The notes under the pieces: model-generated
The model's database searches: none
What the model was told of the DNA's origin: nothing
What the model saw: the letters and a program-made list of their open reading frames with translations, nothing else
Shown here: in pieces, positions 23,106 through 60,483 of the stretch
Layout: the number at the start of each line of letters is the position of its first letter
How positions within the stretch are numbered: position 1 is the stretch's first letter
Made by a program: the position numbers and the translations under genes
Source of the DNA: an uncultured Planctomycetia bacterium
Lineage (GTDB): Bacteria > Omnitrophota > Gorgyraeia > 2-02-FULL-51-18
Length of the DNA stretch: 64,000 bases
Reading direction: 5' to 3'
Assembly: GCA_964431835.1 (NCBI GenBank)
Contig: CAYSKO010000004.1
Location: 71,519 to 135,518, forward strand

Positions 23106-24692
23106 TCAGATGCGCTGCCCCTGCTGGGCGGCGGCCCCCTGATCGGGGACAATGTTGACCGTCATGAAAAATAACAGGTCCGTTTTCTGGACCGTCTTGT
23201 CGTTATGGCTGAAAAGTTTTTCCAGCAGCGGGATGTCGCCCAAAACCGGGACTTTCGTTCTCGAATCGACTATCGTTTCGCGGATGAGACCTCCGATTGC
23301 GATGGTTTGACCGTTCCTAATACGAACCTGTGTCTTGGCCGACCTCGTAGAGAAACGAGGGGCCTTGACGTCCGGCGTGAGCGTGTCGAAGCCCAGGAGA
23401 CTGGTGATCTCCGGCGCGATGCTGACGACGATCTCGTCGGCGCTATTGATTTGCGGGATCACCGAAAGGCGGATGCCGAGATCGCGGTCCTTGTATCCCG
23501 TGATCTCCATGCGGCCGGTCGTCGAATTTCTTTCGAAGGTGGGAATCGCGATGATTTCACCCACCAGGATCTTCGCCTCTTGGTTGTTCAGCGTGGTGAC
23601 GTGGGGCTCCGATAGGACCTTTGCGTCGTTGCGCTGTTGGATCAGTTCGAGCACCGCCTGGAACTGGGTGAAATCCAGCGTGCCGAATTGGAACTCCGCC
23701 TTGTCCGCCACGGGGAAATTGGCCTCGTGGACGAAATCGGTGGCAGGGAAATCTTGAACTTCGTCCGACGTGGAAGTGCCACCCGCGTCCGACGTGGTGC
23801 TGGTGGTCGCCCCGCGGCCTTCGGGTAAAAGGCTGTTCAGGAAGCGGGGGCCGGACTTGGTCGCGCGGAAAGGCGCGGTCGTCGGACGCGACGAACCAGA
23901 AACAGCCGCGCGAAGATTCCACTGAATGCCCATGCGGTCCGCGCTGCCGAGCGTGGTTTCGATCACCTTCGCCTGAATCGTGACCTGCGGGGTCGTGCGA
24001 TCCAGGCGCTGGATGACTTTCCCGATGCTTTGCAGGGTGGTCGGCATGTCCGTTACGATGATCGCGTTCGAACGGCTGTCCGAGCGGATTTTGCCGCGCT
24101 CGGAGAGAATGTCGCGCAGCGCTTTTTCCACTTCCGCCGCCTGCGCGTAGTTGAGCACGTACACTTCTGTGGAGAGTTCTTCCTTCTTGAGATTTTCGAT
24201 CGTCGTTACGCGGATGATGTTTCCGTCGCGGTCGTAGGCGTAACCGTAAGTCTTAAGAACGACGTCGAGAGCTTTTTCCCACGGCACGTCGACGAGGCGG
24301 ATAGTCACCACTCCGGTGACGTCTTTGCCAGCGACGATGTTCACGCCGCTCTTGAAAGAAAGAATGCGGAGCACGTTCTGGATGTCGGCTTCTTTGAAGT
24401 CTACGGTCACGTTGCCGGGCGAGGTCGTCGATCCTTCGACGACGGTCGAATCCGAGGGTGCCGGAGAATCCGTCTCGTCGGAGGAATAAGCGGGTTCTTC
24501 GGCCGTCGGCTGCGCTTCGGACGCCGTGGAAGCCTGCGACGAGGGTTCTGTCGCGGCGGCGGGGGCGGCGGCTTCTACGGGAGGCTGGTCATCCGCCGCT
24601 TGCAGCGAGGCAAAAGGAACGAAAACCAGGAGCGCAATCGACAAAATGGACTTCGCGAGCGTACGCAAGGTCGTTTTATCGTTCAGTGGCAT
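23106..24692 (-). CDS. pilQ: Type IV pilus secretin PilQ
   Basis: Signal peptide, a Pro/Ala/Ser-rich linker, a secretin-N domain (VDFKEADIQNVLRILS...) and a C-terminal secretin domain (VPVLGDIPLLEKLF). Confidence 0.9.
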   Translation of the reverse strand: MPLNDKTTLRTLAKSILSIALLVFVPFASLQAADDQPPVEAAAPAAATEPSSQASTASEAQPTAEEPAYSSDETDSPAPSDSTVVEGSTTSPGNVTVDFKEADIQNVLRILSFKSGVNIVAGKDVTGVVTIRLVDVPWEKALDVVLKTYGYAYDRDGNIIRVTTIENLKKEELSTEVYVLNYAQAAEVEKALRDILSERGKIRSDSRSNAIIVTDMPTTLQSIGKVIQRLDRTTPQVTIQAKVIETTLGSADRMGIQWNLRAAVSGSSRPTTAPFRATKSGPRFLNSLLPEGRGATTSTTSDAGGTSTSDEVQDFPATDFVHEANFPVADKAEFQFGTLDFTQFQAVLELIQQRNDAKVLSEPHVTTLNNQEAKILVGEIIAIPTFERNSTTGRMEITGYKDRDLGIRLSVIPQINSADEIVVSIAPEITSLLGFDTLTPDVKAPRFSTRSAKTQVRIRNGQTIAIGGLIRETIVDSRTKVPVLGDIPLLEKLFSHNDKTVQKTDLLFFMTVNIVPDQGAAAQQGQRI

Positions 24693-25107
24693 TTTTTCCT
24701 TTGGGTTCGTCCCGGTAAAGCGGTACGTACGTTTCGGTTCCGTTCAACAGGAATCGCGCGCCATTGCGCTCGATCTTCAAGACCTTCATTCCGCCGGTCT
24801 CCTCGCCTTCCTTTAATACGGAGCCGTTCACAACGATCACGGAACCCTTCGGGTCGAACACGATCCCTTCGATCGAAATTTCTTCGGCGGATTCAACCCC
24901 GTACAGACCCGATCCCTGCCTGGAATTAAGCGTCAGGAGTGGAGCGAATGGGTCTCTCTTGCCGCGCGGATCGTACGTCGGCTCGTCCGCTGCCCTAACG
25001 CCGTCGATGATACCAAACGACATCAAAAGAATCCAGAAAAAGAATTTTACTCTCAAATTATGAGCATCGCTAGACTTCTTTCTTAAAGGATCAATTTTTC
25101 TAATCAA
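24676..25107 (-). CDS. pilP: Pilus assembly protein PilP-like
   Basis: 143-aa periplasmic protein with an RDPFAPL motif, located between pilO and pilQ. Confidence 0.65.
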   Translation of the reverse strand: MIRKIDPLRKKSSDAHNLRVKFFFWILLMSFGIIDGVRAADEPTYDPRGKRDPFAPLLTLNSRQGSGLYGVESAEEISIEGIVFDPKGSVIVVNGSVLKEGEETGGMKVLKIERNGARFLLNGTETYVPLYRDEPKGKNATER

Positions 25108-25109
25108 AT

Positions 25110-25745
25110 TTAACTCCTGCGCCGGTACGTTTCGATCTCGAGCTGGATTTCGTGGCGGCGGGCATCACTCGGGTTCTCGACCACGCGGAGGTCGGCTACC
25201 CGGAAGAAGGTGGGACTCGCTTCAAGCCGGCCGAGGAAACGCCCGAGCTCGTGACCGCCCGCTTGCGCGCTGATCCGGATCGGGACTTTCGCGTAGGGGC
25301 CGGCTTCCCCCGCCGTCTGTTCGTCGGGCTTAAGCGAGACGATGCGCAGGCCCGACGCCGACGCGAGCTTCGAAAGGTTCTCAAGAAGCGACGGAACTTC
25401 GTCGGGGGCGATGAAGGCGCTTTCCGATTTATCGAGGCGTTCTTTCGTGCGCGTCCACATCGCCTCGATCTTATCCTTGTTCTTGCGGTCGTCGCGCAGG
25501 CCCTGAAGCTCGGCCTTTTTGGCCGACAGCTCCGCGCCGCCCGAAAACGCGCCGATGATCGGCCGGAGAACGAGGAAATAATCGATCGTAAAAAGAAAGC
25601 ACGCGCCGAAGACAAGGATCATCACCTTCTCGCGGGGGTTGCGGCCGTTCACAAAAGCGGCTATCCGGTCGACGAAAGCCGGGCGCTTCGGGACGAATTT
25701 CGTCAGTGGCTTGAGAAAAGCGAATCCCTCCTGCCCGAGTTTCAT
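25110..25745 (-). CDS. pilO: Pilus assembly protein PilO-like
   Basis: TM helix plus a coiled-coil and a C-terminal domain. Starting at the internal ATG gives an ATGA overlap with pilN. Confidence 0.65.
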   Translation of the reverse strand: MKLGQEGFAFLKPLTKFVPKRPAFVDRIAAFVNGRNPREKVMILVFGACFLFTIDYFLVLRPIIGAFSGGAELSAKKAELQGLRDDRKNKDKIEAMWTRTKERLDKSESAFIAPDEVPSLLENLSKLASASGLRIVSLKPDEQTAGEAGPYAKVPIRISAQAGGHELGRFLGRLEASPTFFRVADLRVVENPSDARRHEIQLEIETYRRRS

Positions 25746-26431
25746 TCGGCCACCGCCGCTTTCTTCTCCTTGCGGAACGTGCAAACGAGCGAGAAGTCGA
25801 ACACGTCGGTCTCGCGGATTTTGCGCTGATTCATGTTCTGGAGCTCGATGGATTCGAAAAGAGTCGAGAGGTACGCGTTTTCCTTCAGGACCTTGATGAA
25901 CTTGCCGACGTACGCGGTCTCCTGTCCCTGCGCGACCACGGTGCCCTCAAGGAGCAGCGCGCGTTTCTTTTCCGTCTTCGCGCCCGCGGCCGCCTCGGCC
26001 GCCCGGCGCTTGCGCGCCGCCGATCCGGTGTCCCCCTTGCCTACGCCGCCGCCCGATTGGACGTCGGTGAGGCTCAGGCCGCGCAGCCAGACGCCTTTGG
26101 TGGTGGAATCCGAAAGCGCGTTGAGGAGTCTCGACCATTGGTACGGACGCGAAGCCACCACGTGCGCGTCCTTCAAGCGTACTTTGAGTCGCTGGATCGC
26201 CTCTTTGCGCTCGAGGATTTCCTTGTTCTGTTCCTTCAGCGAAACGATCGCTGACGACGTTGCCGCCGCGTCGACGCGCCGGAGGATTGCGAGGCACCCG
26301 AAGACAATTTGCAGACCGACGAACGCGGCAAGAAGGATCTTGAGTGTGCGCTTGATCGGAAGCTCGGGTAGGACGAAGGCGACGCTTTCCTTCTTTCGAA
26401 GATCCTCGGGAAGAAGATTGATTTCGATCAT
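25742..26431 (-). CDS. pilN: Pilus assembly protein PilN
   Basis: N-terminal INLLPED motif and a single TM helix. 4-nt overlap with pilM. Confidence 0.75.
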   Translation of the reverse strand: MIEINLLPEDLRKKESVAFVLPELPIKRTLKILLAAFVGLQIVFGCLAILRRVDAAATSSAIVSLKEQNKEILERKEAIQRLKVRLKDAHVVASRPYQWSRLLNALSDSTTKGVWLRGLSLTDVQSGGGVGKGDTGSAARKRRAAEAAAGAKTEKKRALLLEGTVVAQGQETAYVGKFIKVLKENAYLSTLFESIELQNMNQRKIRETDVFDFSLVCTFRKEKKAAVAE

Positions 26432-27447
26432 TTGGAGTTTCCCAGCCCGCGGAGGGCCATCCCGAGCGCGACGTTGAGCTCCGCCGAGTGGCTCGCCAGG
26501 AACTTTTGGTCGAGGTCTCCGAAGACCTGCATCTTTTTCATGTTGTCCCAGAGAGAGACCGTGTGCCCGAGTTCCTCGGTGAGGAGCTCGGGTGCCCCCA
26601 GCGAAAGCGCGCCGCCGCCGCTCATCCAGATCGCTTTCAGCTCCTCGCCGGCTTCGTTCTCGAAGTAGTCGATGGAATGGCGGATCTCGTCGATTAGCGG
26701 TTCGAAACCCTTCTGCGTGGCCGCGCGAAGCGCTTCAGCATCCTCGGGCGCGGCGGCTACTTTGAGTGCATCCGCCTCATCCTCGGTGATTTTGTTCGAG
26801 TCCGCGAGCGCTTTCGTCACTCCCTGCGCGCCCACGGGGATCTCGCGGACGAAAAAAGGCTGTTTGTCGTGGATGATCGCGAAGGAGCTGACGACGTGGC
26901 CGATATTGAGGATTCCGTACGAGCGGGAGTCTGCCTGGCCGTCGGCCAGCACCTCGAAGGCGTTCATCAGACAAAAGATGTCAACGTCGATGAGCTCGGG
27001 CTGGATGCTGATGTCGGAGAGGAGCTTGAGTCGCTCCTGAACGTAATCCTTCTTGGCCGCGACCAGGAGAACGTCCATCGTCTTCTTGGCCGCAGTTTGG
27101 TTCAGGATCTGGAAATCGAGGATGCAGTCGTCGATCGGGAAAGGGATGTGGCTCTCGGCTTCGAAGCGGATCGCGCCTTTTAACTCCGCGTGGGTCATGG
27201 AAGGCAGCGAGATACGGCGGATGAGAAGCGAGGAACCGGAGACGGAGATGCGGATGCGCTTGGAGGCGCCTTCGGCGTCGACGGAATACTGGATGGCCTT
27301 CCGGACGTCCTGCGGCGACATGCCTAGAAGCGGGTAAATGGACACCCGGTTCAGCTTAATTTCCTGCTGGCTTCGGGCGATCTCGACGCATTTCAGCGAA
27401 TAGCTGCCGATGTCGAGACCGACCGCCGCGAAATTTTTGGGTTTCAA
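26428..27447 (-). CDS. pilM: Type IV pilus assembly ATPase-fold protein PilM
   Basis: Actin-like fold with GLDIGSYSLKCVEI start. First gene of the pilMNOPQ block. Confidence 0.9.
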   Translation of the reverse strand: MKPKNFAAVGLDIGSYSLKCVEIARSQQEIKLNRVSIYPLLGMSPQDVRKAIQYSVDAEGASKRIRISVSGSSLLIRRISLPSMTHAELKGAIRFEAESHIPFPIDDCILDFQILNQTAAKKTMDVLLVAAKKDYVQERLKLLSDISIQPELIDVDIFCLMNAFEVLADGQADSRSYGILNIGHVVSSFAIIHDKQPFFVREIPVGAQGVTKALADSNKITEDEADALKVAAAPEDAEALRAATQKGFEPLIDEIRHSIDYFENEAGEELKAIWMSGGGALSLGAPELLTEELGHTVSLWDNMKKMQVFGDLDQKFLASHSAELNVALGMALRGLGNSK

Positions 27448-27502: not shown

Positions 27503-27531
27503 ACTTCAACAGGATTGTATTATAAATACAG
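27503..27531 (-). promoter_or_regulatory. Consensus sigma70-type promoter upstream of pilM (TTGACA-N17-TACAAT)
   Basis: The minus strand reads TTGACA tcgtgctgtatttataa TACAAT, about 50 nt upstream of the pilM ATG. It lies in the only AT-rich gap of this region. Confidence 0.6.
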
Positions 27532-27538
27532 CACGATG

Positions 27539-29539
27539 TCAAAGAGACGCGGCACGTTCGACGCGGGCGATCTCTTTTTCCAGTAATTTGGGATCTTTTT
27601 CGGACGATTCAAGGATGAGACGCCGCGCGGAGAGAAGCGTCGCGGCGCCTGAGCCGTCCCCCGCCAGGACGCGGGCCGCCAAGGCGTAACCCAGAGCCTC
27701 TTTTTCGTAGGCAGGGTAACGCGTCCGAACGAGTGTTTCGTAATCGCCGGCCGGCATCCGCCCGAGCATCGCGCGAGCCATGTCCCCGTACCACCCTTCC
27801 CCGCCCTCCGCCAACAAGACCTCGAGCTCCTGCCTCGTCTCGGTGTCCCGGCCATCGCGGTACAACGACAGCGAACGCGCGGCGCGGAGGATCGAACGCA
27901 GTTTCGGCTTTCCCTCGAAGGCCCGAAGCCCTTCGTCGGTCCAGCGCAGACCCAAGTCGAGTTTGCCGTCGAGTTCGTACGCAAGGAGAAGGTTCACGTA
28001 TAGACGCAGCTCTTCGGGCTGCATGCGCCAGGCAGCTTCGAAGGCTCCCGCCGCGTCCGCGTAGCGGCCCATCCCCATGAGCGCGACTCCAGCGTTCGTG
28101 AGCGCCGCCGAATCGGGGCCGTCCAGCGCGTACGCCTTCTTGAAATAGGGATAGGCGTCGGCGTAACGCTTCGTCTTAAGGAAATAAGCGCCCATGTTGA
28201 ACTGGTTCACCTCCGAAGTGGGATCGATGGCGAGCGCCGTGCGGAAATAAACCGCCGCCTTCCCCAGATCGCCGTTCTGAAAATAAATTCGCCCCAGGTT
28301 GAGGTGGCCGTAATAAGCATAGGGCGTATCGGACTTCGAGAGCGTGTCGTAAAACCGCTCGTTGTCGGAGTAGAACGTATTCCGCTGGTAGGTGCGGAGG
28401 GCGAAAAACGAGGAAAAAGCGAACGCCGCCGCGAACGCCGCGATCGCACAGGCCCGAGGAGCGGCGAGCGCTCGCGCGAGGCCGGCCGCCAAAACGAACG
28501 CGAATCCGATCGACGGAAAAAGGAAGTAATGCTCGGCCCACTGAGGATAAAACGGCACGATTTGGAGATAGGGGCCGAAAGAAAGCGCCGCCAGCGTGAG
28601 CCCGAAGAACGCCGCGCCGCGCCGCCGGAGCGCCATGATCCAGAGCGTAAGATAAGAGCCCACCACCGCGAGAGTGGCCGCGACACGCGGATCGGCGAAC
28701 GTCTTCACGAAAGCGATGGAATCGCAATATTTGAAGGGCTCGGGAAAAAGGAGGGCTCGGACGTAGCGGAGGTACGGGTCCCCCATCGAAAGAAGCCGGA
28801 GCGCGGCACCTTTCGCGTCTGTCACCGGCGGAGCCAGCGGCACCGCGCAGCCGAATTTACGAAAAAGAAGGAAAGCCGCTCCGACGGCCGCGTACGGCAC
28901 GAGCCTCCGGACGAGATCTTTGAAGGACGATCGCACGAACGCGACATCCAGCACGATAACGTAGAGCGGCAGAAGAATGCAGCTTTCCTTCGCGAAAAGG
29001 GAGATCGCGTACGCCGCGAGCGCGCCCGTCCGCTCTCCGCGCCAGTAAAGGAGGAGGGCCGAGAGCGTGAAAGCCGCGCCCAGAAGATCCCCACGGCTGG
29101 CGATATACGTGACCGACTCGGTGTGAATCGTGTTCACCGCGAACGCGAGCGCCGCGACGAAGGCCGCGCCCACATTTCCGGTCGCCCTGAAAAGAAGCCT
29201 GAGGAGAAGGAGCGCGATCCCGCAGTGGAGCGCGAGATTCGTCAGGTTGTATCCGAGCGGATTCAGTTTCCAGAAGCTGTAGTCGAGCGCGAACGTGACC
29301 GACGTGAGCGGCCGGTAGTACTGGGTCCAAGAGAGCGTGCGGTCCGTCTTGTAGAAAAAGCCGGTGGCGAAGAGTTCGGGCACGGAGGAAAGCTCGCGGA
29401 GAAGGGAGTTCTCCATGATGATCGATTCCTCGTCGAAAAGAAAGTTGTGCCCGAGAGAGGCGCTGTACAAAAGAACCAGCGCCGCGCAAAGGACGAAGCC
29501 GGCAAGAAAGACGGGGTGGCGGAAACGGTGAGTTCTCAA
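27539..29539 (-). CDS. TMTC-like GT-C-fold membrane glycosyltransferase with C-terminal TPR repeats (DUF1736-type)
   Basis: About 11 TM helices carrying an FLFDEES acidic loop motif, followed by TPR repeats (YGHLNLGRIYFQNGDLGKAAVYF...). TTG start. The gene sits between pilA and pilM. Confidence 0.7.
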   Translation of the reverse strand: MRTHRFRHPVFLAGFVLCAALVLLYSASLGHNFLFDEESIIMENSLLRELSSVPELFATGFFYKTDRTLSWTQYYRPLTSVTFALDYSFWKLNPLGYNLTNLALHCGIALLLLRLLFRATGNVGAAFVAALAFAVNTIHTESVTYIASRGDLLGAAFTLSALLLYWRGERTGALAAYAISLFAKESCILLPLYVIVLDVAFVRSSFKDLVRRLVPYAAVGAAFLLFRKFGCAVPLAPPVTDAKGAALRLLSMGDPYLRYVRALLFPEPFKYCDSIAFVKTFADPRVAATLAVVGSYLTLWIMALRRRGAAFFGLTLAALSFGPYLQIVPFYPQWAEHYFLFPSIGFAFVLAAGLARALAAPRACAIAAFAAAFAFSSFFALRTYQRNTFYSDNERFYDTLSKSDTPYAYYGHLNLGRIYFQNGDLGKAAVYFRTALAIDPTSEVNQFNMGAYFLKTKRYADAYPYFKKAYALDGPDSAALTNAGVALMGMGRYADAAGAFEAAWRMQPEELRLYVNLLLAYELDGKLDLGLRWTDEGLRAFEGKPKLRSILRAARSLSLYRDGRDTETRQELEVLLAEGGEGWYGDMARAMLGRMPAGDYETLVRTRYPAYEKEALGYALAARVLAGDGSGAATLLSARRLILESSEKDPKLLEKEIARVERAASL

Positions 29540-29545
29540 AAGAGT

Positions 29546-29583
29546 ATAAAAAACCCCCGCCGTTTTCCGGCGGGGGTTTTTCT
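29546..29583. terminator. Bidirectional-looking intrinsic terminator immediately downstream of pilA
   Basis: AAAAAA-CCCCCGCCG-tttt-CGGCGGGGG-TTTTTT hairpin with a 9-bp GC stem flanked by A and T tracts. Confidence 0.75.
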
Positions 29584-29598
29584 TCGATTCTTCTTACG

Positions 29599-29961
29599 TT
29601 ACGGCAGAACGTGCAGGTTCGTGCCGGCCGAGTTCGCGCAGACCGGGTTGATGCTGATCGCGCCGACCGTGTACGTCGAGGACGCGCCCGAGATCGGCTC
29701 TTCCGGAACCGCTCCGCCCTTGAGATACGCAGACATCTGCGCGGTCGTCGGGGTGGCGGTTTCGTCGAGCGGAACTTCCAGCGCGGCCTGGTCCTTCGCG
29801 GACGAGATGAGACGCATGTTGTTGATACACGTGTTGCGGCGAGCGGTCACGCGGGCCTGGACGAAGTTCGGCACCGCGATCGCGGCCAGAAGGCCGATGA
29901 TCGCCACGACGATCATGATTTCGACGAGCGTGAAGCCCATCGTATTTTTACGGATGATCAT
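29599..29961 (-). CDS. pilA: Type IVa major pilin (prepilin)
   Basis: MIIRKNTMG|FTLVEIMIVVAIIGLLAAIAVP is a class-III leader followed by the G/F cleavage site, Glu5 and the hydrophobic alpha1 helix. The C-terminal part has two Cys. I used the internal start because the 54-aa upstream extension in the track ORF is unsupported. Confidence 0.9.
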   Translation of the reverse strand: MIIRKNTMGFTLVEIMIVVAIIGLLAAIAVPNFVQARVTARRNTCINNMRLISSAKDQAALEVPLDETATPTTAQMSAYLKGGAVPEEPISGASSTYTVGAISINPVCANSAGTNLHVLP

Positions 29962-30154
29962 AGAAACACCCCTTTGTTCCCTCTCCGAACCGGAGAAGCC
30001 GTTCGAAGGGAGCTGTCCCGATAATCGAGGGGCCGGAAGTTTAGTAGGATGGCGGTTTCCGTCTTGCGCCCTCGCCTTACAATCTATTATCAGGATTCCC
30101 TTCCTTTGATCAAAGCATAACACTAGCTAACTGATTTGTCAATGGCCTTTCCAC

Positions 30155-31369
30155 TTAGTTCTGGACCAGGGTCGAGAGCTTGAAGATCGGCATGAACATA
30201 CAAATGACGATGCCGCCAATCACGATGCCTAAGAAAGCGATGACAAGGGGCTCGATGAGGCTCGTCAGAGCCGAAACGGAGGCGTCGACCTGGTCGTCGT
30301 AGAAATCGGCGATTTTGGTGAGCATCTTTTCGAGCTCGCCCGTCTGCTCGCCGACGGAGATCATGCGGACGACCAGCGGCGGGAACACCTTGCTGCGCAT
30401 GAGCGGGGTCGTGATGTTTTCGCCGTCCCGGATCGACTGCCTTACCTTCTCGATGGCGTTCTCGATGATGACGTTCCCCGAGGTCTTGCCGACGATCTCG
30501 AGCGCCTGGAGGATGGGGACGCCGGATTTGACGAGGGTCGCGAGCGTCCGGGTGAACTTGGAGACGGCCACCTTACGCAGCAGGATGCCGAAGATCGGCA
30601 TGCGGAGCTTCTGTGCGTCGAAGAAGAGCCTGCCCTTCTCGGTCTTTGCGAAGCGCTTGAGGAGCACGATGCCACCGAACGCGCCGCCCACCCAGATGAC
30701 GAAGCTCGCCAGAAGAAAGTCGCTGATGTTGATCAGGATCTGCGTCGGGAGAGGCAGCTCTCCGCCGAAATCCGCGAAGATGGATTTAAAGACCGGCACG
30801 ACCTTGAGCATGAGGACGAGCGTGATCGCCATCGCCATACAGACGACGACGGTCGGATAAACCATCGCGGATTTCACCTTGCGCACGAGATGGTCGGTCT
30901 TTTCGAGGTACGACGCCAGACGTTCCATGATGTCGTCGAGAGCACCCGAGGATTCGCCCGCTTTGACCATGTTCACGAAAAGCGGAGAGAACGCGCGCGG
31001 GTGCTTGCCGAGCGCTTCGTTGAAGCTCGAGCCGGTGGCGACGTCCTTCTTCACCTCGGCGACGATCGCCTTGAAACCCTTGTTGTCGATCTGTTCGGTC
31101 AGGATCTCGAGCGCCTGCATGAGCGGGATGCCCGAATCGATCATGGTGGCCAGCTGGCGCGAGAAAAGAACGAGTTCTTGAAGCTTGATCTTGCCGCCGC
31201 CCTTCGCCGCCTTTCCGATCTTCGCCTTCTGCTTGTCGGGCTTGAGCGTGATGACGACGAGTTCCTGTTTGCGCAGGATTTCGAGCATCGAGCGTTCGTC
31301 ATTGGCCTCCATGACCCCGGCAACCGAACGGCCGGAGCGGTCCTTGGCGGTGTAACGGTATGCGCTCAT
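30155..31369 (-). CDS. pilC: Type IV pilus platform protein PilC (GspF family)
   Basis: Two GspF repeats and three TM helices. Internal start MSAYRY. Confidence 0.9.
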   Translation of the reverse strand: MSAYRYTAKDRSGRSVAGVMEANDERSMLEILRKQELVVITLKPDKQKAKIGKAAKGGGKIKLQELVLFSRQLATMIDSGIPLMQALEILTEQIDNKGFKAIVAEVKKDVATGSSFNEALGKHPRAFSPLFVNMVKAGESSGALDDIMERLASYLEKTDHLVRKVKSAMVYPTVVVCMAMAITLVLMLKVVPVFKSIFADFGGELPLPTQILINISDFLLASFVIWVGGAFGGIVLLKRFAKTEKGRLFFDAQKLRMPIFGILLRKVAVSKFTRTLATLVKSGVPILQALEIVGKTSGNVIIENAIEKVRQSIRDGENITTPLMRSKVFPPLVVRMISVGEQTGELEKMLTKIADFYDDQVDASVSALTSLIEPLVIAFLGIVIGGIVICMFMPIFKLSTLVQN

Positions 31370-31371
31370 AA

Positions 31372-33090
31372 TTATTCGTCCTCCGAAGTGATGCGCAGGA
31401 CCTCGTCGAGCGTAGTGAGTCCCTGCGCGCATTTTCTCAGCGCGTCGTCCCGCAGGCTGGTCATACCGTTCTTCGCCGCGTGCTCGCGGATCTCGGCGGC
31501 GGAGGCCTTGCGCACGATCATGTCACGCATCGCGTCGTCGACGGTGAGCGCCTCGAGCACGCTCATGCGGCCGAAGTAACCGGTCTGATTGCATTTTTCG
31601 CACCCCTTCCCCTTCAGGAAGTTCCGCTTGGCGGGATCAGGGGCGAGTCTGTCGATGTTCACGTTCAGTCTTTCGAATACTTCCTTCGGCACTTCGATCT
31701 TCTCCTTGCAGTTCGGGCAAACCTTACGACAGAGGCGCTGGGCGCCGACCAGGACCACCGAGGAGGCGATCAGGAAGGGCTCCACGCCCATGTCCATGAG
31801 ACGCGTCATCGCGCCCGCGGCGTCATTGGTGTGGAGCGTGGATAGAACGAGCTGGCCCGTGAGCGAGGCCTTGATCGCGATGTCGGCGGTCTCGCCGTCG
31901 CGGATTTCGCCGACCATGACAACGTCGGGGCTTTGGCGAAGAATCGCTCGGAGACCGCTCGCGAAATCGAGCCCGATCTCGGCGCGCGCCTGGATCTGCG
32001 TGATGCCGCGCACCTGATATTCGATGGGGTCCTCGATCGTGATCACGTTCCTCTCCGGCGTATTGAGCTGGGAGAGGATCGAGTAAAGGGTCGTGGACTT
32101 GCCGCTTCCGGTTGGGCCGGTGATCAGGATCATACCGAAAGGCTTGGCGACCGCCTCCTGGAAGGCCTTCAGGGTGTCCGGAAAGAAGCCAAGATTCTCG
32201 AGGCCGAAGCTGAGCGCGCCCTTGTCGAGCACGCGCATGACGACCTTCGAGCCGAAATACACCGGCAGGATCGAGACGCGGAAATCGACCTCCTTCGCGG
32301 CAAGCTTCACCTTGAAACGGCCGTCTTGCGGCACGCGGTTCTCGGTGATGTCGAGTTTGGACATGATCTTGAGGCGTGTGAGGACGGCGTTCTGATTTTT
32401 CTTGGGGATCGTGAGTGCCTCTTCCAAACCGCCGTCGATGCGGTAACGCACGCGCACCGCTTTCTCGAACGGCTCGATGTGGATGTCGCTCGCACGGCGG
32501 CGCAGCGCCTCTTTCAGAATGAGATCCACGATCTTGACGACCGGGGCTTCCGAAGTCTGGGAACCGCCGCCCTCTTCGTCCCCCTTCACGACCTCCACGC
32601 TGCCGGAACCTCCGGAGGCGGCTTCCGCGATGGCGTTCATCGATTCGCCCGTGTCGCCGTAGAGCCGCTGAAGCGAGTCCGTGATGTCCTTTTCGATGCT
32701 AATGACGGCCTCGACCTTGCGGCGCGTGCAGATGGCGATGTCGTCGATGGCGAACACGTTGAACGGGTCGGACATCGCGATCGTAAGCGCGTTCCCGATC
32801 TCGGAGATCGGAACGATCTGGTGCTTGCGCGCGAGCTTCTCGGGCACGAGCCTTGAGAGCTCGGGATTGATCTTAATCTTGTTCAAATTGAGGAACGGAA
32901 TCTTGAGCTCCACCGAAACGAGCGAGAGGAGCTCGCGCTCGCTGATGAGACCCATCTTCACGAAGACGTCGCGGAGCTTGCCGCCTTCCTCCTTCGAATA
33001 CTGCGCGAGCGCGCGCTGGATGTCGGCCTCGCTGACCTTGCCCGTCTCTTTGAGGAGCTCGATGACCCGTTCCGAGAGATTCCGGCTCAC
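31372..33090 (-). CDS. pilB: Type IV pilus assembly ATPase PilB paralog 2 (GspE family, MshEN-type N-domain)
   Basis: Walker A GPTGSGKST, Asp/His boxes and a tetracysteine CxxC...CxxC. The N-terminus carries two MshEN-like 24-mer motifs. Its GTG start overlaps the stop of paralog 1 as GTGA. Confidence 0.9.
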   Translation of the reverse strand: MSRNLSERVIELLKETGKVSEADIQRALAQYSKEEGGKLRDVFVKMGLISERELLSLVSVELKIPFLNLNKIKINPELSRLVPEKLARKHQIVPISEIGNALTIAMSDPFNVFAIDDIAICTRRKVEAVISIEKDITDSLQRLYGDTGESMNAIAEAASGGSGSVEVVKGDEEGGGSQTSEAPVVKIVDLILKEALRRRASDIHIEPFEKAVRVRYRIDGGLEEALTIPKKNQNAVLTRLKIMSKLDITENRVPQDGRFKVKLAAKEVDFRVSILPVYFGSKVVMRVLDKGALSFGLENLGFFPDTLKAFQEAVAKPFGMILITGPTGSGKSTTLYSILSQLNTPERNVITIEDPIEYQVRGITQIQARAEIGLDFASGLRAILRQSPDVVMVGEIRDGETADIAIKASLTGQLVLSTLHTNDAAGAMTRLMDMGVEPFLIASSVVLVGAQRLCRKVCPNCKEKIEVPKEVFERLNVNIDRLAPDPAKRNFLKGKGCEKCNQTGYFGRMSVLEALTVDDAMRDMIVRKASAAEIREHAAKNGMTSLRDDALRKCAQGLTTLDEVLRITSEDE

Positions 33091-34853
33091 GAAAGCACCT
33101 CGTCGCGCACGGTCACGCGCATAACTTCCTCGGGAGTGGTGACGCCGGCGAAAATCTTGGCGATCCCGTTCTCGCGGAGCGTCTTCATCCCCTCGCGGCG
33201 ACCGACTTCCTTTATCTGGTATTCCTGCGCCCCTTTTAGAATGAGGGCACGAACGTCGGGAGAAAGAACGAGCGCCTCGAGGAGCACCGCGCGGCCCGAA
33301 TAACCTTTTTTTCCGCACGCGTCGCAACCGCGCCCCTTGTAGATGAGCGGCTTCTCGACTCTTTTCAATTCTTCGGGCGTGACGCCCAGCTGTTTCAGAA
33401 GCTCGGGCGACGGTTCGTAGCTTTCCTTGCAGGCGTTGCAAATCTTTCGAACGAGGCGCTGGGAACCGGCGAGCAGCACCGAGGAGGTGATGAGGAAAGG
33501 CTCGATCCCCATGTTCACAAAACGAGTGACCGCTCCGGCGGCGGTCGTCGCGTGGAGCGTGGAGAGAACCAGATGCCCGGTGAGTGCCGCCTTGATCGCA
33601 ACGTCAGCCGTTTCGCCGTCGCGGATCTCGCCAACCATGATGATGTCGGGGTCCTGGCGGAGGATCGAGCGAAGAGCGGCGGCGAACGTGAGTTTCACCT
33701 CGGAACGAATCGCGACCTGGTTGATACCTTCGATTTGAAATTCCACGGGGTCTTCCACCGTGATGATATTTTTATCGGGCGAGTCGACGAGCTTGAGAAC
33801 CGAATAGAGAGTGGTCGTTTTGCCGGCGCCGGTCGGGCCGCAGACGACGATCATGCCGTGCGGATGCTTGGACGCGTCGCGCAGCGCCTGGAGCGGCTCG
33901 GGTTCGAAGCCGAGTTTCGTGAGGTCGAGAATGGCCTGGCTCTTGTCGAGCACGCGCAGAACCACCTTCTCTCCCCAGTAGGTCGGGAGCACCGACACGC
34001 GGAAATCGACGTACTTGTCGTTCACCTTGATCTTGAAACGGCCGTCCTGGGGCACGCGGTGCTCGGCGATATCCAAATTCGACATGACCTTGATGCGCGA
34101 AACGACGCCGGAGTGCATGACTCGGTTGGTGGTGACGCCCTCCTGCAGCATGCCGTCCACGCGAAAACGCACGCGCATGCTCTTTTCCTCGGGCTCGATG
34201 AAGATGTCGCTCGCCCGACGACGGACCGCCTCGAACATGATCGAGTTCGTGAGCTTGACGACGGGCTCCTCGTCCATGAGCCGCATGAGTTCCTGCGCCG
34301 AACCCTCCTGGCTCGCGGAAGCCTCGGCTAGCTCGATAGAATCCCCACCTGCCTCCATGTCCTTGACGGCGTCCTGAAGGCTCTGCGAGACGTTTTCGCC
34401 GTGGTACTGTTCGATCGCTTCGCGGATCTCCTTCTCCCCCGCGAGCACGGGGCGGATCTGGAGCTTCGTTGCACGGCGCACATCGTCGATCGCCTGGACG
34501 TTGAGAGGGTCGGCCATCGCGAGCGTCAGGGAATCGCCAGAGCGCGAGACGGGTAGGATGCAGTAAAGATCGACGAGTTTTTTGGGCACGAGCTTCACGA
34601 TATCCGGCTCAAGCTTCATCTTCGACGGGCGCACGATGGGAACATCGAGTTCGGCCGAGAGGACTTCGAGCAGGTTCTCGCGCGAGATGTATCCGAGGCG
34701 AACGAGAATGTCCCCGATCTTTTCCTTTTTGTCCTTCTGAATCTTCAGCGCCTCTTCGAGCTTCTCCGGCGTGATGAGCCCCTTTTTAAGGAGCACGCTC
34801 CCCAGGCGCTCTTTGAGGGTGATCCGTTTGGGACCGTCGCCGTCTTTGGTCAT
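33087..34853 (-). CDS. pilB: Type IV pilus assembly ATPase PilB paralog 1 (GspE family, MshEN-type N-domain)
   Basis: Walker A GPTGAGKTT, tetracysteine, and N-terminal RLGSVLLKKGLITPEKLEEALKIQ / KIGDILVRLGYISRENLLEVL motifs. ATGA overlap with the upstream gene. Confidence 0.9.
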   Translation of the reverse strand: MTKDGDGPKRITLKERLGSVLLKKGLITPEKLEEALKIQKDKKEKIGDILVRLGYISRENLLEVLSAELDVPIVRPSKMKLEPDIVKLVPKKLVDLYCILPVSRSGDSLTLAMADPLNVQAIDDVRRATKLQIRPVLAGEKEIREAIEQYHGENVSQSLQDAVKDMEAGGDSIELAEASASQEGSAQELMRLMDEEPVVKLTNSIMFEAVRRRASDIFIEPEEKSMRVRFRVDGMLQEGVTTNRVMHSGVVSRIKVMSNLDIAEHRVPQDGRFKIKVNDKYVDFRVSVLPTYWGEKVVLRVLDKSQAILDLTKLGFEPEPLQALRDASKHPHGMIVVCGPTGAGKTTTLYSVLKLVDSPDKNIITVEDPVEFQIEGINQVAIRSEVKLTFAAALRSILRQDPDIIMVGEIRDGETADVAIKAALTGHLVLSTLHATTAAGAVTRFVNMGIEPFLITSSVLLAGSQRLVRKICNACKESYEPSPELLKQLGVTPEELKRVEKPLIYKGRGCDACGKKGYSGRAVLLEALVLSPDVRALILKGAQEYQIKEVGRREGMKTLRENGIAKIFAGVTTPEEVMRVTVRDEVLS

Positions 34854-35287
34854 GACTTGTAGCAACGCTTGATCGCCTCGTTTACGTCTGTCGCCGTGGA
34901 CACGAAAACCTGTACCTTGAGATGCGTGACCGTCTCGACGTCCTCGATCGCCGGCGCGTTGAGAGGGTTCGACATCGCGATGGTCACGACCCCGCCAATG
35001 CGGTCGACCGCGATGAGCCCGTACTGCTTGGCGACGTTCTCCGGAATCAGCTTCGCGACGTCGGTCTCGATGTCATATCCGGATAGCGGCAGAAAAGGGA
35101 AGCCGTACTGCGCCGTCAGCGCCTGCGCGATCGCTTCCTCCGTCGTGTGCCCCAGCGCCACGAGGATCTGGCCGATCAGCCCGCCCTTCTCCTTCTGGAC
35201 CCCGAGCGCTTCCGTCAAATTCTCGGGCGTGATCAACTTGCTGTCGATCAAAAGTTCCCCGAGTTGTTTCTGTATGATCTTTTTCAT
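34850..35287 (-). CDS. Stand-alone MshEN / GspE-N-terminal domain protein (putative c-di-GMP receptor)
   Basis: 145 aa with no ATPase domain. It contains the tandem motifs LGELLIDSKLITPENLTEALGVQ and LIGQILVALGHTTEEAIAQALTAQ, which match the MshEN c-di-GMP-binding consensus, plus the T2SSE_N fold remainder. Confidence 0.7.
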   Translation of the reverse strand: MKKIIQKQLGELLIDSKLITPENLTEALGVQKEKGGLIGQILVALGHTTEEAIAQALTAQYGFPFLPLSGYDIETDVAKLIPENVAKQYGLIAVDRIGGVVTIAMSNPLNAPAIEDVETVTHLKVQVFVSTATDVNEAIKRCYKS

Positions 35288-35305: not shown

Positions 35306-36412
35306 TTACCGGAACAGTGATTTTTTTGCGGGCTCCTGAGAGGTCGTCGGCTGCAGGAGACGCTCGAGTTCCTGGACGTCCGAAGAGCGGCTGTAAGCGG
35401 ACTCTCGCGTGATCTTGCCGGTGTTCACGAGCTCCGCGAGGCTCATATTGAGCGTCTTCATGCCCTCCTTCTGTCCCATCTGAATCGCCGAATAGATTTG
35501 GTGCGATTTCGAATCGCGGATCAGCGTGCGCACGGCGTTGTTCGCGAGGAGGATCTCCGGCGCAAGCGCGAGGCCCCCGCCGATCTTGCCGATCAGCTGC
35601 TGCGAGATGACCGCCTGGAGCACGAAGGACACCTGCACGCGAACCTGTTGCTGCTGATGCGCCGGGAACACGTCGATGATACGGTTGATCGACTGCACCG
35701 CGTCCGGCGTGTGCAGCGTCGCGAACACCAAGTGACCGGTTTCCGCGACGGTGAGCGCGATCTCGATCGTTTCCAAATCGCGCATTTCTCCGATCAGGAT
35801 GACGTCGGGATCCTGACGTAGGACATGCTTGAGCGCCTGGTTGAACGAATGTGTATCGGAGCCGACCTCACGCTGATTGATCGTCGCCTTCTTGTTCTTG
35901 AAGATGAACTCGATGGGATCCTCGACCGTGACGATGTGGACCTCCTGCGTCGAGTTGATGTGGTCGATCATCGCCGCGAGAGTGGTGGTCTTGCCGCTGC
36001 CGGTCGCGCCCGTGACGAGCACGAGCCCCGACGGACGGTCGGTCAGCTGTTGGGCGACATGGAGCGGGAATCCGATCTGCTCGAACGTCTTCGGATCGAA
36101 CGGCAGCGCGCGGATGGCCGCGGCGATCGCGCCTCTCTGGAAGAAGAGGTTTACGCGGAACCGGCCAAGACCGTTCACGCCGAACGAATAGTCGAGTTCG
36201 CGCTCCCGTTCGAAAATCTTGAACCGTTCCTCGGAAAGGTGCTGACGGATCAGCCGCACCATGTAGTCGTGGTTGAAGAGGTCGGGAGAAATCTCGACGA
36301 GATCCCCGTCCACGCGCATCGTCGGTTTCACGCCGTCGCCGATATGAAGATCGGAGGCGCGGCTCTTGACGGCGAATTCAAGCAGTTCTGCGAGCGTCTT
36401 TTCGGAAGCCAT
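35306..36412 (-). CDS. pilT: Twitching-motility retraction ATPase PilT
   Basis: 368 aa with Walker A GATGSGKTT, a conserved AIRALP-type motif and the PilT C-terminal region. No MshEN domain or tetracysteine. Confidence 0.92.
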   Translation of the reverse strand: MASEKTLAELLEFAVKSRASDLHIGDGVKPTMRVDGDLVEISPDLFNHDYMVRLIRQHLSEERFKIFERERELDYSFGVNGLGRFRVNLFFQRGAIAAAIRALPFDPKTFEQIGFPLHVAQQLTDRPSGLVLVTGATGSGKTTTLAAMIDHINSTQEVHIVTVEDPIEFIFKNKKATINQREVGSDTHSFNQALKHVLRQDPDVILIGEMRDLETIEIALTVAETGHLVFATLHTPDAVQSINRIIDVFPAHQQQQVRVQVSFVLQAVISQQLIGKIGGGLALAPEILLANNAVRTLIRDSKSHQIYSAIQMGQKEGMKTLNMSLAELVNTGKITRESAYSRSSDVQELERLLQPTTSQEPAKKSLFR

Positions 36413-36448: not shown

Positions 36449-37324
36449 TTACGCGAAGGCCTCGATGAGGTCCCCGCCCTTGCGGCGCGCCTCGGCGGCA
36501 CGGTCCCTCGCCTTGATGAAAAGCTCCTGACCGCTCACGCCATCGAGAGGATTTTCGCTGAGCCCTATCGAGAGCGACAGGCGCTCCTCCGCCGGCTCGG
36601 AGCGGAACGTCTCGGCCTTGGCGAGATCCGTCCTGATCGCCTCCAGAATCGAGATCGCCTTCTTTTTATTCTTGTCCGGAAGGATCACGGCAAATTCGTC
36701 GTTCGAGATGCGCGCCGCGCGGTCGAATTCCGCGGTGTGGCGACGCAGGATGTCGGCGATGTCCTTCAGCGTCTTTTCGGCTACCGCTTCCCCCAGCGCA
36801 TTTCGGTGCGCGTCAAAATTGAGGATGGAGAGATAAGCGAACGAGCACGGACGCTGGAAGTGGATCGCGCGCTCGATCTCTTCGTTCAGCCTCTCCCGGA
36901 TATAGGAGGCGTTGTGGAGTCCGGTTAGCTTGTCCTTCAGCGAAAGTTTTTCGACGCGGTCCAAGAGTTCGCGCGCGTTGAGCGAGATCGTACGGAGGCT
37001 CTTCGAAAGCTCCTCGATCTCGTCGTTACCCTTCATCGCGGGAACCTCGACTGAACGGCCGTCCGCCAGCTTCCTCGCGGTCGCGGCGACCGCCGCGATC
37101 GGAGTCACCATCTGTTTGGTGATCTGGTAGCCGAGGAAAGCCAGGAAACCGCTAACCCCCATGATGATGCTCACGAGCGTCAGGTCGTTGCTTTCGAACG
37201 GCCACCGGATGAAGAGCGAGGCCACGTACAAGCCCACGAGAAGCGGCAGCACCGACATGAGGCTGAAGGCCACGGCCAGCTGATATCTGATCTTCGTGGG
37301 CATGATATGGAAACCACGGGACAT
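36449..37324 (-). CDS. Membrane HAMP-GGDEF protein with degenerate active site (SNDEF)
   Basis: Two TM helices, a HAMP domain and a GGDEF fold in which GG(D/E)EF is replaced by RISNDEF. It is immediately upstream of pilT with a 36-nt gap. Confidence 0.8.
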   Translation of the reverse strand: MSRGFHIMPTKIRYQLAVAFSLMSVLPLLVGLYVASLFIRWPFESNDLTLVSIIMGVSGFLAFLGYQITKQMVTPIAAVAATARKLADGRSVEVPAMKGNDEIEELSKSLRTISLNARELLDRVEKLSLKDKLTGLHNASYIRERLNEEIERAIHFQRPCSFAYLSILNFDAHRNALGEAVAEKTLKDIADILRRHTAEFDRAARISNDEFAVILPDKNKKKAISILEAIRTDLAKAETFRSEPAEERLSLSIGLSENPLDGVSGQELFIKARDRAAEARRKGGDLIEAFA

Positions 37325-53422: not shown

Positions 53423-53504
53423 GAGGAATAAACTACCACAAAAAAGAAGAAGGCGTCACCGGGAAGAGACGGCTTCCCCAGCGACGCCTTCGTGTCTTCG
53501 AGCG

Positions 53505-54290
53505 TCAGGCCGCCGCTCGCGGCGAGGCGGGACTCCAGCGAACCGCGTCCGCGCGGTAACGCAGGAGGAGCCAGAAAAAGCGCATGTCGTCGACGAGGTA
53601 GCGCTTCCAAAGCCTCGCCGGCTCCATGAGGAGCCTCCAGAACCACTCGAGGCCCGCTTTTTGCATCCAGCCCGGGGCGCGTTTCACCATGCCGGCGACG
53701 AACTCGAACGTCACGCCAATTCCGAGCGACACGGGAACGCCGAGCGCGTCCTTGTGGCGGTGGATCCATTTTTCCTGTTTGGGGGCGCCGAGGCCGACGA
53801 AAAGGATGTCCGCCCGTGAATCCCGGACCGTCTTCACGATCTTGTCATTTTCGGTCGCGTTCTTCTCGAAGCCCATCGGCGGACAATACGTTCCGGCGAT
53901 CTCAAGACGCGGAAAACGCGTCTTCATCACCTTCGCCGCGCCGTCGGCCGCGCCGGGACGGCCGCCCATAAAGAACACGCGGTAGCCCTTCTCGGCCGCC
54001 AGCGCGCAGACTTCCGGAAAAAGGTCGGACCCGGAGACTTTTTCGCGGAGAGGCGTGCCGATCCATTTCGCCGCCCAGAGGAGCGGCATCCCGTCTGCGA
54101 GGACGAGGCCCGCGCTGTCGTACACACGGCGGAATTCCTCATCGTCCTGTAATTTGACCAAATGGTCCACGTTGGGCGTCACCACCGAGGCGGGCGTCTT
54201 CGCGCGCACGAGCGCGTCGATTTCAAAGACGGCCTCGCCCATCGTGACGTCGTCTATTTCGGTGCCGAGAATGCGGATTCGCTTGGGCAT
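53505..54290 (-). CDS. WecB/TagA/CpsF-family glycosyltransferase (GT26)
   Basis: Family signature PNVDHLV...ADGMPLLWAAK...FFMGG...ILFVGLGAPKQEKW. Internal ATG start. Confidence 0.85.
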   Translation of the reverse strand: MPKRIRILGTEIDDVTMGEAVFEIDALVRAKTPASVVTPNVDHLVKLQDDEEFRRVYDSAGLVLADGMPLLWAAKWIGTPLREKVSGSDLFPEVCALAAEKGYRVFFMGGRPGAADGAAKVMKTRFPRLEIAGTYCPPMGFEKNATENDKIVKTVRDSRADILFVGLGAPKQEKWIHRHKDALGVPVSLGIGVTFEFVAGMVKRAPGWMQKAGLEWFWRLLMEPARLWKRYLVDDMRFFWLLLRYRADAVRWSPASPRAAA

Positions 54291-54310
54291 CGCTTCCAGT
54301 TCCCCTTTCG

Positions 54311-59903: not shown

Positions 59904-60483
59904 AGGAGCCGGTCCTTTTCGTGGCGAAGCGAATCGGAGCGGCGTTGCCGTCGCGCATCTTGAGAACTTTCGCGGGAACTCCGCCCACGATCGCGTAAGC
60001 CGGCACGTACCCGACGACCACGGAGCCGGCGGCGACGATCGCGCCGTCACCGATCCGAACGCCCTTGACGATCGTTGCCTTCGCGCCGATCCAGACGTTA
60101 TTGCCGACCTCGATCGGCTTCGAGACGTATCCTTGCTCGCGAATCAGGACGTTCACGTCGTCCGCGCGGTGGTCGTGGTCGTAAAAATGCACCGAGTCCG
60201 CTATGAGACAGTCGTCGCCGATCGTCACTCGCTCGAAGCAGACGACTTTCACGTTCTTGTTGAAGTAATTACGGTCCCCCACCTCGAACAAGCCGCCTTT
60301 GACGTCGACGTCGTAGCCGCGCTGGAACACATTGCCCTGACCGAGGCGCATGCGGCCGCCGCCGTGCAGGATCAGCTTGCCGAACCAGAGGTAATTGCGA
60401 CCCTCGGACCGGAGCTTCCCTAGGAATTGAAGACAGAGAGACCAGTGGACGAACTGCGCGACGATCCGCATCCATCTACTCAT
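59896..60483 (-). CDS. Hexapeptide-repeat O-acetyltransferase (left-handed beta-helix)
   Basis: [18 protein letters not shown]...[31 protein letters not shown] hexapeptide repeats. Internal start with an ATGA overlap to the GT2. Confidence 0.8.

Follow-up and report, generated by a model that had tools for sequence, protein, structure and literature searches.

In Pseudomonas aeruginosa and other bacteria, a pilin gene, a Rho-independent terminator and an accessory gene can form a cassette, in which the terminator attenuates expression of the accessory gene and thus sets stoichiometry (PMC11841053). The closest described counterpart of the gene reported here is tfpW, located immediately 3′ of pilA in P. 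aeruginosa group IV (Pa5196, PA7), whose product is a pilin D-arabinofuranosyltransferase of 646 amino acids with an N-terminus in the cytoplasm, a predicted set of 11 transmembrane (TM) helices and a large periplasmic tetratricopeptide repeat (TPR) domain; a DDX motif that TfpW carries in periplasmic loop 1 is essential, ArnT is its best structural template, and it targets multiple Ser/Thr residues of the pilin (bioRxiv 10.1101/2020.04.19.049825). Here we analyze a 64,000-nucleotide stretch of DNA (hereafter, the window) from an uncultured Planctomycetia bacterium of the GTDB phylum Omnitrophota (assembly GCA_964431835.1, contig CAYSKO010000004.1, positions 71,519 to 135,518 of the forward strand), in which a single gene encoding a polytopic membrane protein with a TPR tail separates pilA from pilMNOPQ. 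Its predicted fold, its homology, the conservation of its residues and its position across related genomes lead us to favor the reading that it encodes a pilin-cassette O-glycosyltransferase that uses a polyprenyl-phosphate sugar.

A GT-C/TPR gene follows pilA behind a conserved hairpin

The gene occupies 27539..29539 on the minus strand, which carries all genes of the pilus region, and encodes 666 amino acids. It is the sole gene between pilA (29599..29961, minus strand), whose 120-residue prepilin product matches Pfam N_methyl and NCBIfam pilin N-terminal models, and pilM (26428-27447, minus strand; Pfam PilM_2 match). Translation would begin at a TTG at 29539: no further in-frame start lies 5′ of this codon, and the next one, also a TTG, falls within the first TM helix (TM1). 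The public gene model (P0001, JGI Ga0163151_10000275) is 625 amino acids long and begins at an ATG at M42 (window 29416-29539, minus strand), thereby dropping TM1 together with the invariant GHNFLFDE catalytic loop. Because 39 aligned homologues keep the segment LYSxSxGHNFLFDEE upstream of M42, the alignment identifies TTG 29539 as the correct start and the public model as truncated. Inspection of the intergenic sequence between pilA and the gene revealed no Shine-Dalgarno-like purine run ahead of this TTG.

Directly after pilA lies an intrinsic terminator or attenuator hairpin (29548..29582, minus strand; CCCCCGCCG-GAAAA-CGGCGGGGG, then TTTTTT). Its 9-bp GC stem is perfect and closes on a GAAAA loop, a T6 tract comes next (15 pairs counted, nine of them G-C), and the intergenic sequence as a whole folds at -37 kcal/mol. 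The T-tract ends at 29548, which leaves 8 nucleotides before the TTG. A strong GC hairpin with a T-run separates pilA from the transferase gene in the window and in 11 of 13 orthologous loci, which makes 12 of 14 in all, and a scan of this region of the window for sigma-70-like consensus sequences found no promoter-like site between the two genes. The gene features described in an earlier sequence-only reading of this locus (666 amino acids, TTG start, missing Shine-Dalgarno, 8-nucleotide spacing and sole position between pilA and pilM) were all re-derived from the sequence, and the terminator that it placed before the transferase gene proved to be conserved in relatives.

All promoter calls are consensus matches only. 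Upstream of pilA, a sigma-70-like match with a TG element (TTGACA-17-TATGCT; 30114..30142, minus strand) agrees with the consensus at 10 of 12 positions, and a second, weaker match spans 30113-30086 on the same strand. A near-consensus match (TTGACA-17-TACAAT; 27514..27542, minus strand; 11 of 12 positions) is situated about 60 nucleotides upstream of the pilM start, where its -35 hexamer overlaps the stop codon of the transferase gene. This site suggests that pilMNOPQ may have a promoter of its own and could be transcribed independently, in which case the transferase gene would be tied to the pilA transcript. No terminator was seen after the transferase gene in a scan of the locus. Read-through of the pilA terminator, which the sequence-only reading had proposed, would be the most economical explanation of how the gene is expressed.

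Pilin adjacency recurs in Omnitrophota relatives

Close relatives of the protein (36-50% identity) all derive from Omnitrophota metagenome-assembled genomes (MAGs), some of which are labelled 'Planctomycetia' or 'Eisenbacteria'. The pilA adjacency on which the sequence-only reading was built does not vanish among them: of 37 informative Omnitrophota loci, about 33 have a pilin gene directly upstream, in most cases separated by a terminator hairpin, and a pilin orthologue occupies this position in 13 species-representative genomes and 20 metagenome contigs. Where the contig is long enough, pilB-pilB-pilC precede the pair and pilMNOPQ follow it.

The arrangement is also elaborated upon in several ways. 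Four loci have the order pilA-GT-pilA-pilM (L004, L005, L038, L048), six have two pilins and then the transferase (L002, L016, L036, L042, L051, L056), and in others the transferase gene is repeated in tandem between pilA and pilM, as two, three or no fewer than four copies (L003, L041, L047, L046); in L003, a gene of the YfhO family, also of GT-C type, has been added after two copies. Locus L039 contains two successive pilin-transferase cassettes, the first of which encodes a divergent enzyme of 530 amino acids with a DD motif and an AEH motif. In L010, which is a second pilus locus in one MAG, a paralogue has a pilC-like gene on one side and three pilin-like genes on the other.

Beyond the close relatives, the linkage fades. 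Distant relatives (23-30% identity) are mostly not pilus-linked, and neither are three of three loci from the next-closest clade or two of three other look-ups. We therefore rejected pilin adjacency as a general trait of the superfamily, which is very large: an exhaustive hidden Markov model search with a profile restricted to the membrane domain (the TM-only profile) retrieved, with E ≤ 1e-3 as the limit, 97,814 cluster representatives, of which no more than about 23 reach scores like those of the Omnitrophota clade. One exception among the more distant proteins is P0043 (L033:376-3424; Armatimonadota, PMT_2 and TPR), the best match outside the Omnitrophota clade in the first homologue search, whose gene lies 386 nucleotides downstream of a prepilin-like DUF1559 gene (N_methyl and SBP_bac_10). 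Here a GT-C/TPR gene may have become paired with a pilin-like gene a second time and independently, or the neighborhood may be due to chance in a genome rich in such genes.

The membrane domain has a predicted GT-C fold

The membrane domain comprises residues 1-392 (28364..29539, minus strand), with about 11 TM segments, and was delineated by structural modelling, Foldseek, hhalign and hydropathy; the latter gave 10-11 hydrophobic segments, all of them within the first 382 residues. An AlphaFold model of the full-length protein (mean predicted local distance difference test score, pLDDT, 88.9; predicted TM-score, pTM, 0.80) contains 11 membrane helices in addition to loop helices. When the full-length model was compared with the PDB by Foldseek, and the full-length profile with PDB sequences, the matches were dominated by TPR proteins. 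Since these searches, swamped by the repeats, were uninformative on the membrane domain, the membrane part was aligned and modelled by itself (residues 1-404 in the model; pLDDT 82, pTM 0.87).

Foldseek comparison of the TM-only model with the PDB returned GT-C enzymes as 27 of the top 28 matches, with ArnT at the top (5f15), accompanied by STT3/PglB, Pmt4, DPY19, ALG9, EmbA/B/C and Pmt1/Pmt2. Query-normalized TM-scores were mostly 0.40-0.53, falling to 0.31 for lower-ranked PMT matches, at probabilities of 0.97-1.0. The TM-only profile, which contains no TPR residues, aligned by hhalign with a fish TMTC protein (P0061) over 382 columns (probability 99.3%, E 5e-20) and with an Armatimonadota PMT_2/TPR protein at E 5e-36. 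Against PDB sequences, the same profile gave zero matches even at E ≤ 10, so sequence comparison by itself falls short of the solved GT-C structures. Pfam and NCBIfam searches of the full protein recognized the TPR repeats alone, with nothing else at E ≤ 0.01 in Pfam; the Pfam model TMTC_DUF1736 (PF08409) stayed below its cut-off (E 0.043; 14.2 bits versus 27). Taken together, the fold matches and the alignments indicate that the protein is very probably a GT-C glycosyltransferase.

The N-terminus bears three Arg residues, and the short odd-numbered (cytoplasmic) loops are rich in Lys and Arg. An 11-TM topology with the N-terminus inside and the C-terminus outside has been established for TMTC proteins (PMC7801869). 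The protein, whose hydropathy and charge distribution fit this topology, is predicted to adopt the same N-in/C-out orientation, which would place the loop with the DE motif in the periplasm and, given 11 TM segments that start inside, the TPR domain as well.

TMTC-type residues are invariant in a divergent clade

TMTC proteins are characterized by seven motifs, M1 to M7, with the sequences DD, SHKSYRP, RxD, KE(T/Q)xxT, DW, PxxP and ERxxY, respectively (PMC7801869, Table 4), and the KE(T/Q) of M4 serves in phosphate and metal binding (PMC7801869). We compared these motifs with a family alignment of 40 members, consisting of the window protein and 39 homologues. M1 is kept, as DE: it aligns with the periplasmic loop-1 motif GHNFLFDEE (residues 30-38; 29426..29452, minus strand), within which the acidic loop FLFDEES spans residues 33-39 and the putative catalytic pair D36-E37 is present in 40/40 (D36) and 39/40 (E37) members. 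M3 is likewise kept, R149 and D151 being invariant in 40/40. The equivalent of M4 is K184-E185-S186 (28982..28990, minus strand), which aligns with the TMTC sequence KEQ and in which the Lys and Glu are invariant in 40/40. In the M7 equivalent, A335-E336-H337 (28529..28537, minus strand), the Glu is kept and the Arg is replaced by an invariant His337 in 40/40. K184/E185 and E336/H337 fall at the positions by which TMTC binds phosphate and metal, an indirect hint at a sugar donor linked to polyprenyl phosphate. Only YRP of M2 is kept, with its His-Lys not conserved; M6 is partly kept, with SxxP in place of PxxP; and M5, which belongs to the DUF1736 loop, is lost, aligning to a gap.

As judged from this alignment, the family is a true TMTC-type homologue and yet a distinct, divergent clade, which explains the failed match to the Pfam DUF1736 model. 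The membrane domain is also the better conserved part of the protein, with a mean pairwise identity of 49% and 38 invariant columns versus 36% and four in the TPR domain. A conserved membrane domain joined to a variable TPR region is the pattern that an enzyme with a variable acceptor-binding module would leave. Separately, at residue 136 (29132-29134, minus strand), the window protein has Asn where 39/40 homologues have His, in a motif, VHTIHTEAV, that is the equivalent of the TMTC segment HPIHTEAV.

The protein resembles TfpW in architecture and gene position

Compared by the published description, the window protein resembles TfpW in size (666 versus 646 amino acids), a predicted N-in topology with 11 TM helices, an acidic loop-1 motif and a TPR domain predicted to be periplasmic. 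The likeness extends to the GT-C fold with ArnT as the best template, to the proposed pilin target with its Ser/Thr clusters, and to a gene placed directly after pilA in a pilin-terminator-accessory cassette, an arrangement found here in about 33 loci. There are also differences. The loop-1 motif is DE instead of DDX, and a regular-expression search for YX6PFX7P, the proline-rich motif near the TPR domain of TfpW, returned 0/40 family members. No genes for the D-arabinofuranose pathway (DprE1, DprE2 or DPPR synthase) were recognized among the window genes scanned. Furthermore, TfpW belongs to Proteobacteria and the present gene to Omnitrophota, where it lies between pilA and pilMNOPQ and may be amplified in tandem. 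Neither Pseudomonas, Acinetobacter nor Kingella occurred among the best 120 homologues listed for the full protein or the TM-only profile; because closer relatives fill that list, this does not amount to non-homology with TfpW.

The eukaryotic O-mannosyltransferases TMTC1-4 (PF08409 region; GT-C/PMT clan), considered together with their TPR-bearing and uncharacterized homologues in bacteria, share with the window protein a homologous membrane domain of 11 TM segments followed by an extracytoplasmic TPR domain, as well as the M1 acidic pair, the YRP of M2, the RxD of M3, the KE of M4 and the Glu of M7. They differ in a DUF1736 score that here reaches only 14 bits versus 27, in the M5 motif that falls in a gap, in the lost His-Lys of M2 and in the change of the M7 Arg to His. 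The donor here would be a bacterial polyprenyl-phosphate sugar rather than dolichyl-phosphate mannose, and the proposed acceptor is a pilin rather than cadherins. As for TfpO (PilO) and PglL of the Wzy_C family, tfpO occupies the same post-pilA slot and its product glycosylates pilin Ser/Thr in the periplasm, but it belongs to a different protein family and transfers a preassembled O-unit, linked to undecaprenyl pyrophosphate, en bloc. A Wzy_C/TfpO-type identity of the window protein was rejected, as its membrane domain gave no Wzy_C match even at E ≤ 10 and its predicted fold matches GT-C enzymes.

These comparisons alter the picture drawn by the sequence-only reading. Its GT-C fold assignment held, the top PDB fold matches of the TM-only model being GT-C and not some other fold, and its proposed kinship with TMTC is borne out by the homology of the membrane domain to the fish protein. 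Membership of DUF1736 did not survive, given the sub-threshold Pfam score and the absence of the DW motif of the DUF1736 loop. It had further contrasted TfpW with a TMTC-type enzyme and announced the latter, in the slot after pilA, as a new class; this claim falls, because TfpW itself joins a GT-C domain of 11 TM helices to a TPR domain, is encoded directly after pilA and glycosylates pilin Ser/Thr. By the description of TfpW, with which it shares architecture, gene position and proposed mechanism, the transferase is best regarded as a pilin-cassette GT-C/TPR glycosyltransferase of TfpW design and not as a new class. Our literature search found no paper that links TMTC-like enzymes to pilins or describes the Omnitrophota arrangement.

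The adjacent pilin as the candidate acceptor

PilA is the product of the sole open reading frame with a prepilin motif in the window. It has the leader MIIRKNTMG, a mature protein starting FTLVEIM and two Cys residues, and its sequence includes the peptides LDETATPTTAQMSAYLK and ISGASSTYTVGAISINPVCANSAGTNLHVLP. The Thr/Ser-rich stretch that the sequence-only reading pointed out in the variable region is real and is shared by orthologues: PilA carries an alpha-beta loop ETATPTTAQMS and a segment SGASSTYTV, and Ser+Thr make up 22% of its globular part, as against 10% across 16 further proteins of the window (P = 0.005, binomial). Pilin orthologues, which are 55-89% identical, reach 25-36% Ser+Thr in the globular part and have a Thr/Ser cluster right after helix alpha-1 (such as ETATPTTAQMS, ETATPTTTQMS or SGTATTSAD), with another around SGTYT. 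The adjacent pilin is, in our estimation, the probable acceptor.

The C-terminal domain, residues 393-666 (27542..28363, minus strand), is soluble and all-helical, as indicated by Pfam, the model and Foldseek. Matches to Pfam TPR_1/2/8/16/19 cover residues 410-545, and the helical repeat of the full-length model continues through residue 665. Foldseek matches of this part are TPR proteins, including the TPR domain of OGT and PilF. PADLOC defence models gave nothing meaningful on the protein (E 0.0088, on the TPR part).

Alternative readings and contrary evidence

An active GT-C enzyme might act mainly on something other than the pilin, either on a different envelope protein of the pilus machine, most plausibly at the N-terminal linker of PilQ, or on many periplasmic proteins, much as TMTC and PMT enzymes serve sets of substrates, and we regard this as unlikely but well short of negligible. 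PilQ residues 34-105 (24380-24595, minus strand) form a linker with 26% Ser+Thr and 57% Ser/Thr/Pro/Ala, the transferase gene is as near to pilMNOPQ as it is to pilA, with no terminator after it, and eukaryotic TMTCs act on multiple substrates (PMC7801869). Since some family members adjoin no pilin, linkage to a pilin gene is evidently no requirement for the enzyme to work. On the other hand, what the gene adjoins on its 5′ side is, in about 33 loci, specifically a pilin gene, the paralogues of L010 and L039 stand beside other pilin genes and away from pilQ, the promoter-like site before pilM sets the gene apart from pilMNOPQ, and the characterized transferases in the post-pilA slot, TfpO and TfpW, all modify pilin. 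Transfer of sugar to a non-protein acceptor, be it lipid A, lipopolysaccharide (LPS) or a surface polysaccharide, in the manner of ArnT, would make the pilus location incidental. ArnT is indeed the top structural match, a distant relative (P0148) has Arn-like surroundings that include a formyltransferase, an epimerase and also a PMT_2 protein, and a superfamily of 97,814 cluster representatives certainly has mixed functions; but pilin linkage is kept across loci only 36-50% identical, a TPR domain on GT-C enzymes (TMTC, TfpW) goes with protein acceptors, and the annotation of window genes reveals no LPS or lipid A modification genes nearby, which leaves little probability for such an acceptor.

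A different role altogether would be that of a mainly non-catalytic assembly factor, whose TPR region acts as a pilotin of the PilF/PilW/Tgl kind when the secretin or the pilus machine is assembled and whose polytopic domain is a mere anchor. Like the window protein, PilF, PilW and Tgl have TPR domains and are encoded within pilus clusters or close to them, and the TPR regions are structurally similar. PilW (TIGR02521, E 1.7e-11) is the best NCBIfam match of the TPR region, with Tgl and GltE also listed; Foldseek matched P. aeruginosa PilF (2fi7, 2ho1; target-normalized TM-score 0.65); and the gene calls of the cluster include no separate PilF/Tgl-like TPR lipoprotein. These scores are nonetheless far beneath the equivalog cut-offs (44 bits versus 154 for PilW, 18.8 versus 225 for Tgl), generic TPR proteins score equally well or better, and none of the pilotin equivalogs was matched by this protein, a 666-residue polytopic one and not a small TPR lipoprotein; pilotins, by contrast, are lipoproteins of about 250 amino acids without a membrane enzyme domain. 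Moreover, it is the membrane domain and not the TPR region that is conserved, its GT-C catalytic-type residues are invariant, a GT-C fold of 390 residues is unnecessary as an anchor, and tandem arrays of two to four copies fit enzyme diversification better. We consider a pilotin function very unlikely.

Several observations also weigh against glycosylation of the pilin by this protein. Three close-relative loci do not adjoin pilus genes (L011, L017 and L068): two of them belong to the most divergent subclade, one being next to metH, and the third, L068, is next to enolase. The whole pilBCA-MNOPQ order is conserved, so the position of the gene could be partly inherited and not selected. The Foldseek E-values of the GT-C matches are modest, at 1e-3 to 1e-1, and the M2 His-Lys, the M5 DW and the M7 Arg of TMTC are unconserved in the family, meaning that its chemistry may differ from that of the known relatives. 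The surroundings of the cluster contain no recognizable gene for a synthase of polyprenyl-phosphate sugars or for a flippase, and no GtrB/DPM1-like, DprE or UbiA-like donor-synthesis gene was recognized in the window; the sole GT2 gene of the window (61409-62356, minus strand) belongs to a polysaccharide cluster at a distance of 32 kb, and NCBIfam does not class it as GtrB- or DPM1-like. Finally, the preferred reading is built on fold, homology, residue conservation and wide synteny, from which we infer the pilin modification itself.

Neighboring genes in the window

Transcription of the pilus region follows the order pilT, a gene with an MshEN domain, two pilB-type genes, pilC, pilA, the GT-C/TPR gene, pilM, pilN, pilO, a pilP-like gene and pilQ. 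Gene calls and Pfam place pilT at 35306-36412 and the small stand-alone MshEN-domain protein at 34850-35287, followed by two tandem genes for PilB-type ATPases (about 31372-33441 and 33087-34865) and pilC (30155-31432), all on the minus strand. Downstream of pilM, the gene calls and Pfam annotation of the public record give pilN (25742-26431), pilO (25110-25784), a pilP-like gene (24676-25107) and the secretin gene pilQ (23106-24692), also on the minus strand. A HAMP-GGDEF diguanylate cyclase gene (36449-37324, minus strand) flanks pilT, as do the MshEN gene and the two PilB-type ATPase genes; the MshEN and GGDEF genes around pilT suggest an input of cyclic di-GMP to the pilus motor.

An antisense open reading frame of 601 amino acids (28304-30109, plus strand), which runs across the N-terminal part of the transferase gene and pilA, lacks independent support and was rejected as an artefact of the high G+C content (61%); several more long antisense frames in the region look like artefacts of the same kind. 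What counted against them is that homologues, a confident fold and a G+C content of 0.76 at third codon positions all speak for the minus-strand frame.

Further away, a surface-polysaccharide cluster (51602-63993, minus strand) includes genes for a carbamoyltransferase, a BNR/sortilin-repeat protein, a Wzy_C protein, a hexapeptide acyltransferase, a GT2 enzyme and a pyruvyl transferase. The Wzy_C gene (57365-58984, minus strand; O-antigen ligase/polymerase-like) is the only one of its kind in the window and lies 28 kb from pilA; its product and the TfpO/PglL pilin O-oligosaccharyltransferases are members of one superfamily.

Discussion

We propose that the inner-membrane GT-C glycosyltransferase and pilA constitute a pilin-accessory cassette. 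Transcription would start at the pilA promoter and most transcripts would end at the terminator hairpin behind pilA, with a minority reading through to yield low amounts of enzyme, limited further by the TTG start and the missing Shine-Dalgarno sequence. The protein would insert with its N-terminus inside and 11 TM helices, bringing loop 1 with D36-E37, R149/D151, K184/E185 and E336/H337 to the periplasmic face, where these residues would bind a polyprenyl-phosphate-linked sugar and catalyze its transfer, while the periplasmic TPR domain would hold the acceptor protein. The most likely acceptor would be membrane-anchored, unassembled PilA, whose ETATPTTAQMS loop and SSTYT segment may be O-glycosylated before pilus assembly, as TfpW does on the group IV pilin of P. 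aeruginosa. The orientation in the membrane, expression by read-through, catalytic activity, the pilin as acceptor, the O-linkage and the lipid-linked donor are the elements of this mechanism that we infer.

A more ambitious proposal, which we put forward only tentatively and consider improbable as a whole, is that Omnitrophota pili carry an O-glycan made by a dedicated TMTC-type clade that is independent of the TfpW lineage, has a His-for-Arg variant of the active site, pairs with alternative pilins, can expand into arrays of two to four paralogues and diversifies the pilus coat. If this is true, diversification of the coat might be directed against pilus-specific phages, for instance, or might serve contact with host cells. 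If the enzyme is an ordinary TfpW homologue, the finding would simply widen the distribution of a known system.

The phylum Omnitrophota is uncultured, and its members are thought to rely on contact with other cells. The proposed function would extend pilin-cassette glycosylation, represented by TfpO and TfpW in Proteobacteria, to this phylum, and the tandem enzyme arrays would point to diversification of the pilus surface. Bacterial TMTC homologues are extremely numerous, and the literature that we searched assigns a substrate to none of them. For the Omnitrophota clade, an obvious candidate substrate is encoded next door, with a single terminator in between; if the proposal is true, the pilin would be the first natural substrate assigned within the uncharacterized superfamily of bacterial TMTC-like/TPR GT-C proteins, which comprises about 10^5 sequence clusters.

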